Notes under the pieces: generated by a model
Database searches by the model: none
Seen by the model: the letters and a program-made list of their open reading frames with translations, nothing else
Told to the model about the DNA's origin: nothing
In this document: positions 626 to 46,728 of the stretch, piece by piece
Position numbering within the stretch: position 1 is the first letter of the stretch
Layout of the letters: each line of letters opens with the position of its first letter
Program-made: the position numbers and the translations under genes
Assembly (NCBI RefSeq): GCF_036507355.1
Contig: NZ_AP027877.1
From: Escherichia coli
Lineage (GTDB): Bacteria > Pseudomonadota > Gammaproteobacteria > Enterobacterales > Enterobacteriaceae
Length of the DNA: 64,000 bases
Strand: one strand, 5' to 3'

Positions 626-1174
626 TTAAGAACGTTTTTCCGGAATACGGCACAGCCCCTGAGCGGGAATGTCCATGGCAGAATTAAAACGGGCTGACAG
701 ATTTTGCAGGCCGATCAATGCCGTCAGTTCGGTGAGCGCCTGAGCGTCAAAATGCGCAGCCAGTCGGGTGCGCAGGGCATCATCGACCGTTGGCGGTGTG
801 ACGCTTGCGGCTTCGGCGTACTCCAGCGCCAGCCGTTCTTCATCGCTGAAGAGCGGGCTTTGCCGCCAGTCAGCCACTGCCAGCAGTTTATCGCTGCTGC
901 CGGTACGCTCGGCGACTTTCATACTGGTGATATCCACACAAAACTCACACAGGCACATTTGCGCAATGCGCGCGCTGACAAGCGATCGTACTACCGGATC
1001 GAGCGGTGAGCGTTTGCGCTCCAGCCAGCCAACAAACATCGACACCAGATAAAAGATAAACGGGATCCGCCCCCACCAGCGAATGGGGCTTAGCACCTCG
1101 CCGTAATGGCGACGATGCAGCCACGCCTGCGGACGTAAAATGAAAGGAATTTTGCTAAGCGGTGGTAAACCCAT
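626..1174 (-). CDS. ynjA: YnjA, carboxymuconolactone decarboxylase-family protein
   Basis: 182-aa ORF; start codon overlaps ydjZ stop by 1 nt (TGATG on the coding strand), suggesting translational coupling. Confidence 0.85.
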   Translation of the reverse strand: MGLPPLSKIPFILRPQAWLHRRHYGEVLSPIRWWGRIPFIFYLVSMFVGWLERKRSPLDPVVRSLVSARIAQMCLCEFCVDITSMKVAERTGSSDKLLAVADWRQSPLFSDEERLALEYAEAASVTPPTVDDALRTRLAAHFDAQALTELTALIGLQNLSARFNSAMDIPAQGLCRIPEKRS

Positions 1175-4670: not shown

Positions 4671-10734
<6,064 letters not shown>

Positions 10735-10738
10735 TACT

Positions 10739-10765
10739 TACCCGCAGAAATCATTCTGCGGGTAT
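10739..10765 (+). terminator. Stem-loop terminator after astE
   Basis: tacccgcagaa-atca-ttctgcgggta inverted repeat immediately after the astE stop. Confidence 0.7.
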
Positions 10766-11063
10766 TAAGTTGCTTTCTTATAAATTAATACAGATTAATC
10801 CTGGTTATTTGCTTTATTTATCACCAGTCATCCGGTATAGTTCTTCATAATCTCTGCAAAATCATCGTGTTGTAATATTCTCTCATCACTTTCCATCAAA
10901 TTTTCTTTTTTTCTCCATAATTGGCGCAAAAGTGTTTTTTACACTTTCATTGTTTTACCGTTGCTCTGATTAATTGACGCTAAAGTCAGTAAAGTTAATC
11001 TCGTCAACACGGCACGCTACTTAAGAAAGCCGTAATAAATAACTGAAAGGAAGGATATAGAAT

Positions 11064-11549
11064 ATGCGTAAATTAACTGCACTGTTTGTTGCCTCTACCC
11101 TGGCTCTTGGCGCGGCTAACCTGGCCCATGCCGCAGACACCACTACCGCAGCACCGGCTGACGCGAAGCCGATGATGCACCACAAAGGCAAGTTCGGTCC
11201 GCATCAGGACATGATGTTCAAAGACCTGAACCTGACCGACGCGCAGAAACAGCAGATCCGCGAAATCATGAAAGGCCAGCGTGACCAGATGAAACGTCCG
11301 CCGCTGGAAGAACGCCGCGCAATGCATGACATCATTGCCAGCGATACTTTCGATAAAGCAAAAGCTGAAGCGCAGATCGAAAAAATGGAAGAGCAGCGCA
11401 AAGCTAACATGCTGGCGCACATGGAAACCCAGAACAAAATTTACAACATCCTGACGCCGGAACAGAAAAAGCAATTTAATGCTAATTTTGAGAAGCGTCT
11501 GACAGAACGTCCAGCGGCAAAAGGTAAAATGCCTGCAACTGCTGAATAA
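11064..11549 (+). CDS. spy: Periplasmic chaperone Spy
   Basis: 161-aa ORF MRKLTALFVASTLALGAANLAHA... with signal peptide. Confidence 0.95.
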   Translation: MRKLTALFVASTLALGAANLAHAADTTTAAPADAKPMMHHKGKFGPHQDMMFKDLNLTDAQKQQIREIMKGQRDQMKRPPLEERRAMHDIIASDTFDKAKAEAQIEKMEEQRKANMLAHMETQNKIYNILTPEQKKQFNANFEKRLTERPAAKGKMPATAE

Positions 11550-11572
11550 TCTTTCAGCCAAAAAACTTAAGA

Positions 11573-11629
11573 CCGCCGGTCTTGTCCACTACCTTGCAGT
11601 AATGCGGTGGACAGGATCGGCGGTTTTCT
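11573..11629 (+). terminator. Rho-independent terminator after spy
   Basis: ccgccggtcttgtccac ... gtggacaggatcggcgg stem followed by a T tract. Confidence 0.75.
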
Positions 11630-11673
11630 TTTCTCTTCTCAAACAGTTGTAAAAAAAGCCTGATCACCACTAA

Positions 11674-13174
<1,501 letters not shown>

Positions 13175-13187
13175 TGTTAACTCCGAA

Positions 13188-13207
13188 TGCTGGTTATCTA
13201 TCCAGTG
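13188..13207 (-). promoter_or_regulatory. LexA (SOS) box upstream of cho
   Basis: CACTGGATAGATAACCAGCA on the cho strand (CTG-N10-CAG core), 14 bp upstream of the cho ATG. Confidence 0.65.
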
Positions 13208-13324
13208 TAACAGGCGGGAAGCGATTAAAAAAGAGGCGGGTCGATGACAAAGGTTACACCGTCTGACGTGCTACGCTTGTCAGGCCTATTCGACTCCTGC
13301 AATGTATTGAATTTGCATAGTTTT

Positions 13325-13358
13325 GTAGGTCGAATAAGGCGTTCACGCCGCATCCGGC
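13325..13358 (-). repeat. REP (repetitive extragenic palindromic) element
   Basis: Reverse complement reads gccggatgcggcgtgaacgccttattcgacctac, near-identical to the REP consensus; lies downstream of nadE. Confidence 0.75.
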
Positions 13359-13403
13359 GTGAACAAATTACTCTTTTTCGCACAATCCAATATGTGCAAA
13401 TTA

Positions 13404-14231
13404 TTACTTTTTCCAGAAATCATCGAAAACGGTAATTGGCGGACGGCGTTTATGTTCGGTTTTCAGATACCAGTTCTCTATTGTTCTGGCGACCTGTTCA
13501 GGTACGTTTTTCCCTTCCAGATAGTCGTCGATATTGTCATAGGTCACGCCGAGTGCCACTTCATCTGGCAGAGAAGGGCGATCATCTTCCAGATCGGCCG
13601 TTGGCGCTTTCTTATAAAGGTGTTCCGGGCAACCTAATGCCGCCAGTAACTGTTTACCCTGACGTTTGTTGAGACGATACAGCGGATTAATGTCCGTACC
13701 GCCGTCACCATATTTAGTGAAGAATCCGGTAATGGCTTCTGCTGCATGATCGGTGCCCACCACGACACCGCTGGTCATACCCGCAATGCTATATTGTGCT
13801 TTCATCCGCTCACGCGCTTTTTCATTGCCACGGACAAAATCGCTCAGTTCAATGCCTGCTTCCCGCAATGCCTGCTCGCTAGCCAATACCGCGCCCTTGA
13901 TATTAACGGTTAATACGCGATCCGGTTGAATAAAGGCAATGGCATCCTGGCAATCTTGTTCGTCGGCCTGAACACCATAGGGCAGGCGTACGGCAATAAA
14001 TTGCAGTGATTCGTTGCCGGTTTCCTGGCGCAGCTCATTAATCGCCATCTGGCACAGCTTTCCGGCAAGCGTGGAGTCCTGACCGCCGCTGATCCCGAGC
14101 ACCAGTGATTTAATGAACGGATAAGTTCGCAGGTAGCTTTTCAGAAAATCGATACTACGACGAATTTCCTCTTCAGCATTAATCTGCGGTTTTGCGCCCA
14201 GCGCCTTTATTATTTGTTGTTGCAATGTCAT
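13404..14231 (-). CDS. nadE: NH3-dependent NAD+ synthetase
   Basis: 275-aa [34 protein letters not shown]... with SGGQDS PP-loop motif. Confidence 0.95.
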
Positions 14232-14432
14232 TGAACCCCTCCAGACAGAAAAGACAAAACTTCCTTAAAGCTAACCCGTTGCCACTGAAACGACAAGCGA
14301 CAGCGGGCTGAATGGTGGTTAAAACGTCATACAGGAATCCTCTGAAAGCGGAGCCGTTTCGTTCATGGGCTTGAAAAAGCGCCCAATGTATTCCAGGCTT
14401 ATCTAACACGCTGATAAACAAGAGGACGGAAT

Positions 14433-14771
14433 ATGAACAAGAATATGGCAGGAATTCTGAGTGCAGCGGCGGTATTAACCATGCTGGCGGGTTGTACGGC
14501 TTATGATCGTACCAAAGACCAGTTTGTACAGCCTGTGGTGAAAGACGTCAAAAAAGGCATGAGCCGGGCGCAGGTTGCACAAATTGCGGGTAAACCTTCG
14601 TCTGAAGTGAGCATGATCCATGCTCGTGGTACTTGCCAGACCTACATCCTGGGTCAACGTGATGGTAAAGCAGAAACCTACTTTGTCGCGTTAGATGATA
14701 CTGGACATGTCATCAACTCCGGTTATCAGACCTGTGCTGAATACGACACTGATCCACAGGCTGCGAAGTAA
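14433..14771 (+). CDS. osmE: Osmotically inducible lipoprotein OsmE
   Basis: 112-aa ORF with lipoprotein signal (LAGC). Confidence 0.93.
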
Positions 14772-14804
14772 TCACTTCGTCTGAAAGCTTGAGTAACAAC
14801 GGAA

Positions 14805-14829
14805 ACCGGCCATTGCGCCGGTTTTTTTT
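14805..14829 (+). terminator. Rho-independent terminator after osmE
   Basis: aaccggc-cattgc-gccggtttttttt. Confidence 0.85.
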
Positions 14830-15069
14830 GGTCTGAGTTCTTAATTATCTTCGCGAATTATTTGCCCGAAATGTGAAGAGGGTCATAACCGCAGGTCAAG
14901 GAGAGACAATTTATAAGGTCAAAGAAATACTATTGCTCAGGTCTATACCGTATACTCCTTTCAGCCACAAAAAAAGTCATGTTGGTTTCGCAAGTTACCC
15001 AGAGCATGGAAGCAGGTTAAGGCTTGCGGAGTGTCTGGCTGACAGATAATCGTCGATGAGGGCAGTTTT

Positions 15070-15390
15070 ATGGAAAAGAAACACATTTATCTGTTTTGTT
15101 CTGCGGGCATGTCTACCTCTTTACTGGTATCAAAAATGCGCGCACAGGCAGAAAAATATGAAGTTCCGGTCATTATTGAAGCATTTCCGGAAACACTGGC
15201 TGGTGAAAAAGGTCAGAATGCCGATGTCGTGTTATTAGGGCCGCAGATTGCTTATATGTTGCCCGAAATCCAGCGTTTGTTACCCAACAAACCGGTTGAA
15301 GTAATTGACTCGCTGCTTTATGGCAAAGTCGATGGTTTAGGCGTGCTTAAGGCTGCGGTTGCAGCGATTAAAAAAGCCGCAGCAAATTAA
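15070..15390 (+). CDS. chbB: PTS chitobiose-specific EIIB component
   Basis: 106-aa [37 protein letters not shown]... Confidence 0.93.
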
Positions 15391-15474
15391 TTTATTTTAA
15401 ATTTTCCCGTCAAAGAGTTATTTCATAAATCAATACCGCAATATTTAAATTGCGGTTTTTAAGGGTATTTTTCT

Positions 15475-15631
15475 ATGAGTAATGTTATTGCATCGCTTGA
15501 AAAGGTACTCCTCCCTTTTGCAGTTAAAATAGGAAAGCAGCCACACGTTAATGCAATCAAAAATGGCTTTATTCGCTTAATGCCGTTAACCCTTGCGGGG
15601 GCCATGTTTGTATTAATTAACAACGTTTTTC
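15475..15631 (+). pseudogene. chbC: chbC 5' fragment (PTS EIIC), truncated by IS1 after about 52 codons
   Basis: My translation of the frame starting at 15475: [52 protein letters not shown], then runs into the IS1 left end and stops. Confidence 0.85.
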
Positions 15632-15686
15632 GGTGATGCTGCCAACTTACTGATTTAGTGTATGATGGTGTTTTTGAGGTGCTCCA

Positions 15687-15962
15687 GTGGCTTCTGTTTC
15701 TATCAGCTGTCCCTCCTGTTCAGCTACTGACGGGGTGGTGCGTAACGGCAAAAGCACCGCCGGACATCAGCGCTATCTCTGCTCTCACTGTCGTAAAACA
15801 TGGCAACTGCAGTTCACTTACACCGCTTCTCAACCCGGTACGCACCAGAAAATCATTGATATGGCCATGAATGGCGTTGGATGCCGGGCAACAGCCCGCA
15901 TTATGGGCGTTGGCCTCAACACGATTTTACGTCACTTAAAAAACTCAGGCCGCAGTCGGTAA
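15687..15962 (+). CDS. insA: IS1 InsA (transposition inhibitor / N-terminal part of InsAB' transposase)
   Basis: 91-aa [43 protein letters not shown]... Confidence 0.95.
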
Positions 15963-16384
15963 CCTCGCGCATACAGCCGGGCAGTGACGTCATCGTCTGC
16001 GCGGAAATGGACGAACAGTGGGGCTATGTCGGGGCTAAATCGCGCCAGCGCTGGCTGTTTTACGCGTATGACAGGCTCCGGAAGACGGTTGTTGCGCACG
16101 TATTCGGTGAACGCACGATGGCGACGCTGGGGCGTCTTATGAGCCTGCTGTCACCCTTTGACGTGGTGATATGGATGACGGATGGCTGGCCGCTGTATGA
16201 ATCCCGCCTGAAGGGAAAGCTGCACGTAATCAGCAAGCGATATACGCAGCGAATTGAGCGGCATAACCTGAATCTGAGGCAGCACCTGGCACGGCTGGGA
16301 CGGAAGTCGCTGTCGTTCTCAAAATCGGTGGAGCTGCATGACAAAGTCATCGGGCATTATCTGAACATAAAACACTATCAATAA
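15881..16384 (+). CDS. insB: IS1 InsB frame (expressed as InsAB' fusion by -1 frameshift)
   Basis: 167-aa ORF in the -1 frame relative to insA; canonical IS1 organisation. Confidence 0.9.
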
Positions 16385-16399
16385 GTTGGAGTCATTACC

Positions 16400-16894
16400 C
16401 AGAAAGTCGAGAAACAACTTTTTGAGCTGTATAAAAACCCGGAGTTGAAAGTTAAGCCGAAAGAACTGGAACAGCGCGGTGGGGCTTATTACTCTGATGC
16501 AGCGTGCGAAGTGATCAACGCTATCTACAACGATAAGCAAGCAGAACATTACGTTAATATCCCGCATCATGGGCATATTGATAATATTCCGGCAGACTGG
16601 GCGGTAGAAATGACCTGTACGCTGGGGCGCGATGGCGCGACGCCACATCCGCGCATTACGCATTTCGATGATAAAGTGATGGGGCTGATTCACACCATTA
16701 AAGGCTTCGAGATTGCTGCCAGCAACGCCGCACTTAGCGGAGAATTTAACGATGTGTTACTGGCGCTAAACCTTAGTCCGTTGGTGCATTCCGATCGCGA
16801 TGCTGAGCTGCTGGCACGCGAGATGGTTCTGGCGCACGAGAAATGGCTGCCAAATTTTGCCGACTGCATCGCAGAGCTTAAAAAAGCACATTAA
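16400..16894 (+). pseudogene. chbF: chbF 3' remnant (6-phospho-beta-glucosidase C-terminal third)
   Basis: Frame open from the IS1 right end: QKVEKQLFELYKNPELKVKPKELEQRGGAYYSDAACEVINAIYNDK...ELKKAH matches the C-terminus of a family-4 glycoside hydrolase; no N-terminal part present. Confidence 0.85.
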
Positions 16895-17665
<771 letters not shown>

Positions 17666-17675
17666 GTAAGGTGGT

Positions 17676-17704
17676 AAGGTCACTCCCCAGGGGACGTGAC
17701 CTTA
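17676..17704. terminator. Bidirectional stem-loop between convergent chbG and katE
   Basis: aaggtcactcccc-a-ggggacgtgacctt inverted repeat. Confidence 0.6.
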
Positions 17705-17711
17705 TCCATAT

Positions 17712-19973
17712 TTACGCCGGAATTTTGTCAATCTTAGGAATGCGTGACCACACGCGGTGTGCTGCCATCAGCGTTAACAGTTCATCCATAAAACTACCGT
17801 CGGCGCTGTCAGCTTCCACAATCCCTTCTTCACCCTGGTCAGCGACCTTGATTGTTGCTTTAAACTTGCGCGCGTCTCCCGCCAGCGCAATCGGTTTAAG
17901 GTGTTTGTAGGCTTCCATCAGGTAGTAGTTGGCATCGCCGTTGTCAGCGATATCCGCGATATTGCCGCAAGGGACAATGACCGCATCGACCGTCAGCGAA
18001 GGCGCACCGGCAAAGGTAGCGGCTATAGGCAACACCGTACCGTCATCCGCAGTCACTTCACCCATTCGGGAGTAGAGCAGTTTGGCATGAACGCCTTTGG
18101 CCTTCAGCGCCTTGAGAATGGCCAGAAGGTCTGCCGATCTCACTTCATCATTAAGTAAAATCGCTACCACGCGACCTTTCACATCACCGTCAGGAATGGC
18201 GTACAAACTTAAGGATGGATCCTTTTTCAGACCGTTGACGTCCGGAGGTGGGGTGATATTCAGCTGGTCGTCAGTCAGTTCGATACCGAGATTTTTCGCC
18301 ACCGCCTGGGCCAGAGTGAGATCAATATGCGCCAGCTGGTCAACAACGCGCTCACGAATATACGGACGAACGACTTTGCTTAACTCAAAACTGAAACCAT
18401 CGACAATATGGCGCTGCTCGAATGGCGTCTGACTTAGCCAGAACAGACGCGGATGGGAATAATATTCGCCAAAAGATGGACTGCGCTCGCGAACTTTATT
18501 TCCTTCCACGCGTTCCTGATATGATTCAAAACCGCCGCGTTTCGGTCCCGGCGGTGTTTCGCGCGGCCAGTTATCGTTGATCGAGTTCGGTTCGTAATTC
18601 GCCGGGTTAGTGTCGATCCCCATACGATGCATGCCATCACGCTGGAAGTTGTGGTAAGGGCAGGTCGGACGGTTAATCGGAATCTCATGGAAATTCGGCC
18701 CACCAAGACGACTGATTTGTGTATCGGTATAGGAGAACAAACGTCCCTGCAACAGCGGATCGTTGGTGAAGTCCAGTCCCGGCACAATATGCCCAGGATG
18801 AAAAGCCGCCTGTTCGTTTTCAGCAAAGAAGTTATCCGGGTTGCGATTGAGCACCATTTTGCCGACACGCTGAACGGGCACCAGTTCTTCCGGGATAAGT
18901 TTAGTTGGATCGAGAAGATCGAAGTCGAACTTGAATTCATCTTCTTCAGGAATCAACTGGAAGCCCAGTTCGTATTCCGGAAAATCGCCTGCTTCAATGG
19001 CTTCCCACAACTCGCGGCGGTGGAAGTCCGGGTCACGTCCGGTTAGTTTTTGTGCTTCATCCCAAACGAGTGAGGCTTTACCTGCCAGTGGTTTCCAGTG
19101 GAAACGTACAAACGTTGCCTTCCCTTCGGCATTAATCAGGCGGAAGGTATGAATACCAAAGCCTTCCATGGTGCGGTAACTGCGGGGGATGCCGCGATCC
19201 GACATCGCCCACATCACGTTGTGCAGAGTTTCAGGTTGCAGAGAAACATAATCCCAGAAAGTATCGTGGGCGCTTTGCCCTTGTGGAATTGCCCAGTGTG
19301 GTTCTGGTTTTACCGCATGAACAAAATCGGGGAATTTATGCGCATCCTGGATAAAGAAGATTGGCGTGTTATTGCCAACAAGGTCAAAAATACCCTCTTC
19401 GGTATAGAATTTGGTGGCAAAGCCACGGATATCACGCACGGTATCGGCAGAGCCAGCGCCACCCTGAACGGTAGAGAACCTAACAAATACTGGGGTGATT
19501 TTGTTCGGATCTGAGAGGAAATCCGCTTTGGTGATATCGCTTAAGCTTTTATATGGCTGGAAATAACCGTGAGCGGCTGATCCACGTGCATGAACAATAC
19601 GTTCCGGGATGCGCTCATGGTCAAAGTGGGTGATTTTCTCGCGCAGAATAAAATCTTCCAGCAGCGTTGGACCACGGCTACCGGCACGCAGTGAGTTTTG
19701 ATCGTCGGCGATGCGCACGCCCTGATTAGTGGTCAGCGCATAATTTTCACTGCCTTTGCGTACGTCTTCCAGAGAATTAAGTTTTTCGTTACGCGTATCA
19801 GGGGCTTTCAGGCTCCCTGGGGCGGTAGGTTGTGCACCTGGCGGTGTTGGTTCAGCCGCTGGACGATGAGAGCCATCCTCAGGTGCCAGTGAGTCCATCC
19901 CCGGTTTCGCTTCGCTGGAATCGTGTAGTGGTGACTGGTGCTGATGTGGGTTCTTTTCGTTATGTTGCGACAT
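17712..19973 (-). CDS. katE: Catalase HPII
   Basis: 753-aa [37 protein letters not shown]... with catalase core motifs. Confidence 0.96.
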
Positions 19974-20176
19974 TGAACTCGTCTCCTTAATTTATTACTG
20001 AAAGGGCCGCTGTTTTGGTCAAAAAACTCTCTAACTATAGACCACCAGCCAGACCCCGCTTCGGAGACTATTCTGGAAACGGTGTTATGAAATACACGCA
20101 AAGCGGGACGTACAGGGGCTAAATCGGCTAAACTACAGTTTTTCTGATTTTTAATATGCGTTTAGTGAAGCCAGTA

Positions 20177-22906: not shown

Positions 22907-23038
22907 CCCCGTTCTCCTGATCTTATTATTTCTATCACTGCGTAGCAGTCATAGTGTTGGCGCAAGATTAACAGAACTGTGAGCTGGCTCTTATATTCAA
23001 ATGGAATTGCTTATTCCAGAAAGGTGATTTTTGCCTTT

Positions 23039-23629
23039 TTAGTATTCAACCTGATGCTTAATAAGCCGATGAAACTGGATCTGCAAGGTATTGATCATTT
23101 GCGATGACCAACGAACAGCGCTGTTCTCGGGTAATGAATGGGGCATCCATACCGACCAGACAAATAATGCCATGCAGATAAAACGTTCCAGTTGGTTACC
23201 CTTTTGGGGAACCAGGATAGGCAAGCGGAAACGCCAGCGGCATGGCCAGAGCAGGGGAACACCGGCGGGTGTCAGCATATCGGCAAGTATGTGGCTTAAA
23301 TAACCCAGCACCATTCCTTGTAGCGCATCAGCCGGAATGAACCAGCTTTCAGGAACCTTAAGGTAAAAGGTTGCCAGCAGCGCAAATACCGCCAGCAGAC
23401 TGTGGGTAAAACCACGATGCCCAAAAGCGCGGGCGATCGGTTTTGATATCCACTTTAATCGCTGCCCAAGAAACGACTTTGGGTGATCGATGTCCGGTAA
23501 CAAACACGTCAGGATTGCGGAAGGGACAATATGCCACCAGTCACCCTGTGCCAGCACGGGCGTCAGCTCGGCATTTTTGGCAAATACCGCACAAGCAATA
23601 GAAAAGAGAAGGTGACCTTCCGCCGTCAT
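23039..23629 (-). CDS. ydjM: SOS-regulated inner membrane protein YdjM
   Basis: ORF track 200 aa; start at MTAEGHLLFSIACAVF gives 196 aa; two LexA boxes immediately upstream. Confidence 0.85.
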   Translation of the reverse strand: MTAEGHLLFSIACAVFAKNAELTPVLAQGDWWHIVPSAILTCLLPDIDHPKSFLGQRLKWISKPIARAFGHRGFTHSLLAVFALLATFYLKVPESWFIPADALQGMVLGYLSHILADMLTPAGVPLLWPCRWRFRLPILVPQKGNQLERFICMALFVWSVWMPHSLPENSAVRWSSQMINTLQIQFHRLIKHQVEY

Positions 23630-23643
23630 GATAAAACTCACTA

Positions 23644-23681
23644 AACTGTCGATACGTACAGTATAGGATTTTTATACAGTG
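23644..23681 (-). promoter_or_regulatory. Tandem LexA boxes upstream of ydjM
   Basis: On the ydjM strand: TACTGTACGTATCGACAGTT (CTG-N10-CAG) and adjacent CACTGTATAAAAATCCTATA. Confidence 0.75.
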
Positions 23682-23791
23682 CACGGAAGTGGTGACGGTG
23701 TAACTCTTTCTCTTAAATTGACGATTAATCCGTCAGTTGAATGCAAATTCAGATAAAGAACCAGGGGCAGCGTGATCACTGCCCCTGGTCA

Positions 23792-24460
23792 TTAACCGAG
23801 AAGGTCTTTTGCGGTGAGTTCTGTCAGCGATGAGAGTTTGACGTTTGCTAATACAAAACGTGGATCATTTTGCGCTTCTGGCGCAGGAACGACGATGGAA
23901 CGCATGCGGGCTGCTTTAGAGGCGATCATGCCATTTACCGAATCCTCCAGCGCTACGCAGGTCAGTGGGTCAACGCCCAGTTTTGCTGCGCAGTCGAGAT
24001 ATACTTGCGGATGCGGCTTGCTGTAAGGCAGTTTTTCGGCCGAGGCGAGGGCATCGAAACTGTCGCGTAAGTCAAACATGGTCAACACTTTTTCCAGCAT
24101 ATGTAGTGGTGACGCGGAGGCCAGTCCCACCAATAAACCTTGTTCTTTGCATAACGCAACGGCTTCGCGCACGCCTGGTAATAATGGACGTGTCTCTTCA
24201 ACCAGTGAAATGGCACGGGCAATAACCTGTTCTACTACTTCCTGACGGCTTGGCCCATTCCACGGTTGCCGGGCGTACCAAAGATCGACCACCATATCGA
24301 TGCGTAAACCTAAGGTGTCCGGCAGCTCGTTACGACGGGAGATATCCACCCCCAGGCTTGCCATCACATCCAGTTCGGCTCGATCCCATAAAGGTTCTGA
24401 GTCGATAAGTAATCCATCCATATCAAAAATTGCAGCAAGAATCTGACGCGGGGTTGACAT
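23792..24460 (-). CDS. yniC: HAD-family hexitol/2-deoxyglucose-6-phosphate phosphatase
   Basis: 222-aa ORF with DxD HAD motif (IFDMDGLLIDSE). Confidence 0.9.
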   Translation of the reverse strand: MSTPRQILAAIFDMDGLLIDSEPLWDRAELDVMASLGVDISRRNELPDTLGLRIDMVVDLWYARQPWNGPSRQEVVEQVIARAISLVEETRPLLPGVREAVALCKEQGLLVGLASASPLHMLEKVLTMFDLRDSFDALASAEKLPYSKPHPQVYLDCAAKLGVDPLTCVALEDSVNGMIASKAARMRSIVVPAPEAQNDPRFVLANVKLSSLTELTAKDLLG

Positions 24461-24606
24461 TACAACCTCTCCTTTAGAGCATTATGTGTAAGGTATTAAG
24501 CCGTGCTTATGATTAAGCGCCTATCATATCGCCTTTAAAGAATGGGCGAAAACAGATATCTACAGGTAAACTAAGTGAAACGACGCGTCTTAATCAAGGA
24601 GAACTC

Positions 24607-46396: not shown

Positions 46397-46728
46397 TTTG
46401 TTCTTCCCGTGATGCAGACATAATTCTATGAAAGCATAAATTAAAAACGCACAGAAGCGTAGAACGTTATGTCTGGTTTATAAAATGAACCTTCAATTTT
46501 ATTTTTTATGAAAACAGTATTTCATTTTTATGGTTTCGTTTATACCGATGGTTTATGTGGAAATTGTCGAAGAGAGCAGATTTGCGCAACGCTGGGATCA
46601 GTCTTAAAAAGTAAAAAAATATATTTGCTTGAACGATTCACCGTTTTTTTCATCCGGTTAAATATGCAAAGATAAATGCGCAGAAATGTGTTTCTCAAAC
46701 CGTTCATTTATCACAAAAGGATTGTTCG

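Follow-up and report, generated by a model that had tools for sequence, protein, structure and literature searches.

The LexA operator in front of ydjM in Escherichia coli: a conserved palindrome overlapped by a half-site at a candidate -10 hexamer

The interval 23644..23681 of the window (the whole 64,000-nucleotide stretch of E. coli chromosomal DNA that was analysed) is very probably the known LexA operator of ydjM, which has already been described and is not in itself new. Read on the minus strand, its 38 nt are CACTGTATAAAAATCCTATACTGTACGTATCGACAGTT. They are identical to positions 1810159..1810196 of K-12 MG1655, where the proximal box occupies 1810177..1810196. The K-12 ydjM boxes (Fernandez de Henestrosa et al. 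2000, as cited in PMC6590174 and PMC4951493) are the same locus and the same 38 nt, without any difference in the operator. Single-base differences between the window strain and K-12 are found further upstream, for example CTGAAT in the former against CTGAAA in the latter. Little of this is novel: the membership of ydjM in the E. coli LexA regulon dates back to 2000, and reviews and comparative papers already mention both of its boxes. The comparison of lexA(Def) and lexA(Ind-) backgrounds was reportedly already made by Fernandez de Henestrosa and colleagues in 2000. What the cross-species comparison brings is a small clarification, namely that the "second box" consists of a conserved half-site linked to a probable -10 element, in a geometry like that of recN boxes 2 and 3. 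It seems likely that this weak distal site truly contributes.

Sequence and significance of the two boxes

Both 20-mers lie on the minus strand where an earlier note on this DNA had placed them. That note called them abutting, yet they are not side by side: they share 2 nt (TA at 23663..23662), and it is this overlap that allows two 20-mers to fit in 38 nt. The end of the proximal box is 14 nt 5' of the ydjM ATG at 23629, and that of the distal box 32 nt (Table 1). The start codon corresponds to ATGACGGCGGAA, which is conserved in all related loci; the GTG at 23641 that appears in the list of open reading frames is not the annotated start. A gammaproteobacterial LexA box is an imperfect 20-bp palindrome resembling TACTG(TA)5CAGTA, and its core, CTG-N10-CAG, is complete in the proximal box, whereas only the left half of this core is present in the distal one. 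The matches of the distal box to the consensus are restricted to its left half CTGTAT and to C16, T19 and A20, with an A-rich center in between. In its right half CTA replaces CAG, so that two of the three invariant CAG positions are lost. With their 2-nt overlap and an offset of 18 nt, the sites have the geometry of tandem operators, in which two LexA sites overlap or lie within about 10 bp of each other.

Table 1. Features of the ydjM promoter region, in window coordinates
Feature	Position	Strand	Sequence or description
ydjM coding sequence	23039..23629	minus	196 aa, ATG start; RefSeq annotation of matching genomes
Proximal (strong) LexA box	23644..23663	minus	TACTGTACGTATCGACAGTT; full CTGT-N8-ACAG palindrome
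Candidate -10 hexamer	23660..23665	minus	TATACT; spans the box junction; invariant in 81/81 sequences and in Erwinia and Pantoea
Distal (weak) LexA box	23662..23681	minus	CACTGTATAAAAATCCTATA; left half CTGTAT good, right half CCTATA against the expected ACAGTA
Weak candidate -35 hexamer	23683..23688	minus	TTCCGT; 17 nt upstream of TATACT
Conserved block	23691..23704	minus	GTTACACCGTCACC; upstream of the boxes, just upstream of the candidate -35
Terminator-like hairpin of the upstream gene hxpB (yniC)	23759..23790	minus	14-pair stem with 9 G-C pairs, then a short T-rich stretch

The identity of the gene is supported by the RefSeq annotation, by Pfam (PF04307, YdjM, 7e-36) and by an NCBIfam equivalog (NF008651, 'metal-dependent hydrolase', 7.6e-113). 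Among solved structures, none is related to YdjM by sequence. The wording "inner-membrane protein of unknown function", under which the protein had been presented, is fair.

The bare core CTGT-N8-ACAG has a single exact occurrence in the window, at the proximal box. Since 0.54 occurrences are expected per window and 42 of 100 shuffles contain at least one, this match is not significant on its own. The full 20-mers were scored with a heterology matrix of the Berg-von Hippel type, built from 18 published E. coli LexA boxes from which ydjM was excluded (PMC3009722 Table 4). Both ydjM boxes rank within the top 5 of 127,962 window positions, together with the cho box, counted on each strand (13188..13207), and a half-site at 46500..46519. 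The scores of this ad hoc matrix, which are not published HI values, are 10.2 for the proximal box and 9.75 for the distal one, which is thus rated slightly better. By the published HI, it is the proximal box that is stronger (about 9.0-9.1; the distal equivalent in Salmonella has 12.85; PMC11228462, PMC8072944). First-order Markov resamples contain 0.24 such sites per window, and a tandem pair was seen in none of 300. When the A+T-rich composition of the surroundings is used, about 1e-5 sites are expected per position and strand, so that a second one 15-25 nt away would be expected about 2e-4 times.

Conservation of the operator and its surroundings

A scan of one genome per species recovered 80 loci, all from Enterobacteriaceae and with YdjM identities of 85-99%, and the boxes were aligned across 81 Enterobacteriaceae sequences by the CTG-N10-CAG anchor. 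The proximal box is conserved in the manner of a LexA box: its half-sites (TACTG[T/G]A...ACAG) are invariant in 81/81 sequences, and the spacer between them is free to vary, with 23 variants. The replacement of T by G at position 6, which produces CTGG, also occurs in genuine boxes, such as those of cho and ruvA. In the distal box, the CTG at positions 3-5 is kept in 78 of the 81 sequences and the CAG expected at positions 16-18 in none (0/81). Because this half is missing in every species, the distal box alone would bind LexA poorly. Two other parts of this box do not vary across the Enterobacteriaceae sequences, the AAA at positions 9-11 and the CCTATA (81/81); owing to the latter, every species has TATACT across the boundary between the two boxes.

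More distant relatives carry the same arrangement. Erwinia amylovora and Pantoea, whose YdjM proteins are 66-69% identical, have both boxes in the same layout and keep TATACT. The distal half-site of Pantoea is CTGG, and the distance from CTG to CTG is 17 nt there, against 18, and 19 nt in one Leclercia locus (L062). These offsets of 17 and 19 count against a rigid cooperative geometry.

The conserved block extends from about 23716 to the ydjM ATG. Further upstream, only Escherichia sequences can be aligned, since in the others a different gene ends close to the position equivalent to 23727. Immediately upstream of the candidate -35, almost every column of GTTACACCGTCACC is shared by 90-100% of 80 distinct sequences, with a single variable position at about 60%, and GTTACAGCGTCAC is also found in Erwinia and Pantoea. 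No known motif could be assigned to this block, which may act as a promoter element or be bound by a second regulator. Within the species, 5422 of 5426 complete E. coli genomes carry the 91-nt promoter region, 3585 of them with an identity of at least 99%, and 5423 carry the stretch 23000..24500, annotated as ydjM and hxpB, with an identity of at least 95%.

The gene neighborhood itself varies. In most non-Escherichia species (loci L002-L081 and L085), a gene other than hxpB ends directly before the ydjM promoter; in Pantoea it encodes a short-chain dehydrogenase, and in Klebsiella the yniC and ydjM orthologues are separated by an additional gene. On the downstream side, a tcyP-like SDF transporter is kept in Erwinia and Pantoea.

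The candidate promoter and a model of repression

The promoter was sought with an approximate sigma-70 matrix, derived from published compilations, by which the 175 nt upstream were scored in seven species. With this matrix, the top candidate uses TATACT as its -10 in all seven, and both boxes, 14 and 32 nt upstream of the ATG, overlap this best candidate hexamer. The -35 candidates begin with TT and lie 16-17 nt upstream, the orthologous hexamers being TTCCGC, TTCACA, TTTATT and TTCTCA. In the window, TTCCGT-17-TATACT would direct transcription from a putative start near 23653, in which case the boxes would span about -10 to +10 (proximal) and about -28 to -9 (distal). We lean slightly towards this geometry, with TATACT as the -10. 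A stricter consensus scan of 23500..23900 returned no sigma-70 site, and no ydjM start site is given in the supplements of Kim 2012, Conway 2014 and Mendoza-Vargas 2009 or was retrieved by full-text literature searches.

Several other candidates were set aside. GTTACA-17-(C/T)ACTGT ranks lower and loses its T6 in Pantoea, TATAAA ranks lower and has no -35 at a usable spacing, and GTCACC-17-AAAAAT ranks lower and is not conserved. A CRP-like TGTGA-N7-TTACA, visible in the cross-species consensus, is wrongly spaced, and E. coli lacks it. On the upstream side, the terminator-like hairpin of hxpB, which includes an 11-nt perfect inverted repeat, separates ydjM into its own transcription unit. A search for repeats found only this terminator and weak inverted repeats, and an Rfam scan of 23400..24000 only a sub-threshold raiA (19.6 bits for a cut-off of 101.3).

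The following model can be proposed from this layout. One LexA dimer would sit on the full palindrome, which overlaps the 3' part of the likely -10 and the putative start. A second dimer may occupy the overlapping weak site, where one subunit would make specific contacts with the conserved CTGT half-site and the other would lie on the -10 hexamer. Together, both sites would cover roughly -28 to +10 of the promoter and exclude RNA polymerase. After DNA damage, RecA-stimulated self-cleavage of LexA would free the promoter and ydjM, coding for a predicted inner-membrane metal-dependent hydrolase, would be transcribed. The occupancy of the weak site in vivo and the cooperativity between dimers are inferred.

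Regulation, related operators and rival explanations

The repression of ydjM by LexA within the SOS response, which the earlier note had deduced, is well supported. The gene is listed among those regulated by LexA (PMC6590174), and its induction by DNA damage depends on LexA cleavage: AZT induces it 2.5-fold, its expression is 8.6-fold lower in lexA3 and its HI is about 9.0 (PMC11228462), and a multi-omics time course reports a log2 induction of up to about 2.6 (PMC11002266). Among the genes of PMC11228462 whose best box has an HI of 8.2-9.4 (insK, uvrD, dinG, rmuC, ftsK, dinB), ydjM has the largest LexA dependence, a value compatible with the contribution of a second site without proving it. 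The same two boxes, also 14 and 32 nt from the ATG, are present in Salmonella (HI 9.12 and 12.85), where ydjM is induced 2.1-fold by nalidixic acid and a gfp fusion gave no detectable fluorescence (PMC8072944). A YdjM-family gene is also regulated by LexA in Staphylococcus aureus (PMC11442139). That the repression is tight, as had been suggested, is not evident, since the published induction ratios are modest (about 2 to 9-fold). Cooperative and tight repression by the two boxes is nonetheless plausible.

Other SOS operators resemble that of ydjM to different degrees. The closest is recN of K-12, in which box 2 is TACTGTACACAATAACAGTA and box 3 TAATGGTTTTTCATACAGGA (750..769 and 768..787 of locus L083). 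As in ydjM, a strong palindrome is paired with a weak box at an offset of 18 nt, with TA as a 2-nt overlap, the weak box has its degenerate half on the side of the strong one and the boxes are close to the start codon. Unlike in ydjM, the weak box is downstream of the strong one, in mirror order, and a third, strong box is found 22 nt upstream. The response to AZT also differs (19-fold for recN and 2.5-fold for ydjM, PMC11228462). In Salmonella, the recN boxes are at distances of 8, 26 and 48 nt (PMC8072944). The lexA gene likewise has two LexA sites close together in an SOS promoter, but both are well conserved and 1-10 bp apart without overlapping (PMC4951493), whereas the second site of ydjM is a half-consensus. 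In colicin operators, LexA binds cooperatively to a strong and a weak site with overlapping ends (Gillor et al. 2008, as cited in PMC4951493). Cooperativity is demonstrated for these operators, which unlike that of ydjM are plasmid-borne, and is plausible for ydjM. The overlap and the offset of the colicin tandem boxes, about 15 nt, differ from those of ydjM.

Several rival explanations of the boxes were weighed. That the boxes would be a chance LexA-like sequence in A+T-rich intergenic DNA, without any regulatory role, finds an argument in the bare core, which is expected about once in two windows and found in 42% of the shuffles. Yet the scores of the full 20-mers and the tandem layout far exceed chance, the half-sites are invariant across 80 species and LexA-dependent induction has been published, so that conservation and expression data have already effectively refuted this reading and its probability is negligible. 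A more serious possibility is that the proximal palindrome is the sole functional LexA site, ydjM being an SOS gene with one operator, and that the distal "box" is promoter sequence (an A-tract in the spacer and TATACT) carrying a CTGT by chance. The right half of the distal box is indeed never CAG, and TATACT would suffice to explain its invariance; the AAA at positions 9-11 is more constant than is usual for LexA spacers, the distance to the proximal box differs by 1 nt in Pantoea and Leclercia, and RegPrecise gave only one site for ydjM, according to PMC4576408, which lists CACTGTATAAAAATCCTATA as a second site missing from that database. Nevertheless, CTG is retained in 78/81 sequences and in Erwinia and Pantoea, at positions without an obvious role in a promoter spacer, and the change seen in Pantoea is to CTGG, a variant tolerated by LexA. 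The strong-plus-weak geometry recurs in recN, and the lexA3 dependence of ydjM is greater than that of every gene of similar HI in the table of PMC11228462. Moreover, tandem LexA sites at E. coli ydjM are stated to have been experimentally reported (Fernandez de Henestrosa et al. 2000, as cited in PMC4951493). A single operator thus seems unlikely.

A further reading would keep the distal half-site as a contact for LexA but fuse it to the -10, making a three-half-site operator (CTGT ... [TATA]CTGT ... ACAG) in which the third subunit would need contact with the neighboring dimer; in addition, the invariant GTTACAnCGTCAC block just upstream could be bound by a second regulator, providing an input beyond LexA. 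We regard this combination as tentative and rather doubtful. If true, the module with an 18-nt offset, also found in recN, would be a cooperative building block that SOS promoters can reuse, kept in both Enterobacteriaceae and Erwiniaceae. Alternatively, the ydjM promoter could be further upstream, at the RpoD-SELEX-associated CTGAA(A/T)-17-ATTAAT (about 23752..23724), in which case the LexA boxes would lie at about +36 to +73 and act as a roadblock to transcription instead of excluding RNA polymerase. A constitutive-promoter peak was reported in the yniC-ydjM spacer with CTGAAA-17-ATTAAT as its prediction (Shimada et al. 2014), and both K-12 and the window have this sequence. Yet these hexamers are a computational guess within the SELEX peak, ATTAAT lacks the key A at position 2 of the -10, and the candidate scores poorly with the approximate sigma-70 matrix and ranks first in none of the species to which this matrix was applied. 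In addition, the stretch cannot be aligned outside Escherichia, a different gene ends at the equivalent of about 23727 and conservation is limited to the region from about 23716 to the ATG. This upstream promoter is quite improbable, and two LexA sites of unequal strength, over the candidate -10 TATACT, are the preferred reading. The window itself reads CTGAAT-17-ATTAAT on the minus strand at 23724..23752, the -35-like hexamer being one base off the CTGAAA of K-12.

Some observations concern other parts of the window. The known LexA box of cho (ydjQ), CACTGGATAGATAACCAGCA, is on the minus strand, 13 nt before the GTG codon that starts an open reading frame of 295 aa (12287..13174). It scores best of all LexA-like sites in the window, although it also belongs to the training set of the matrix. 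The half-site in the ppsR-ppsA intergenic region, TATTTTTTATGAAAACAGTA on the plus strand, scores like the ydjM boxes with the ad hoc matrix, but the right half-site (ACAGTA) is the only one that it contains; the match probably arose by chance, the DNA being A+T-rich. Finally, upstream of ydjM (about 9600..20000) the window is not colinear with the best-matching strain, TB06051: cho is at 9639..10526 in that strain, and this shift in position indicates an insertion or deletion of about 2.6 kb between cho and ydjM.
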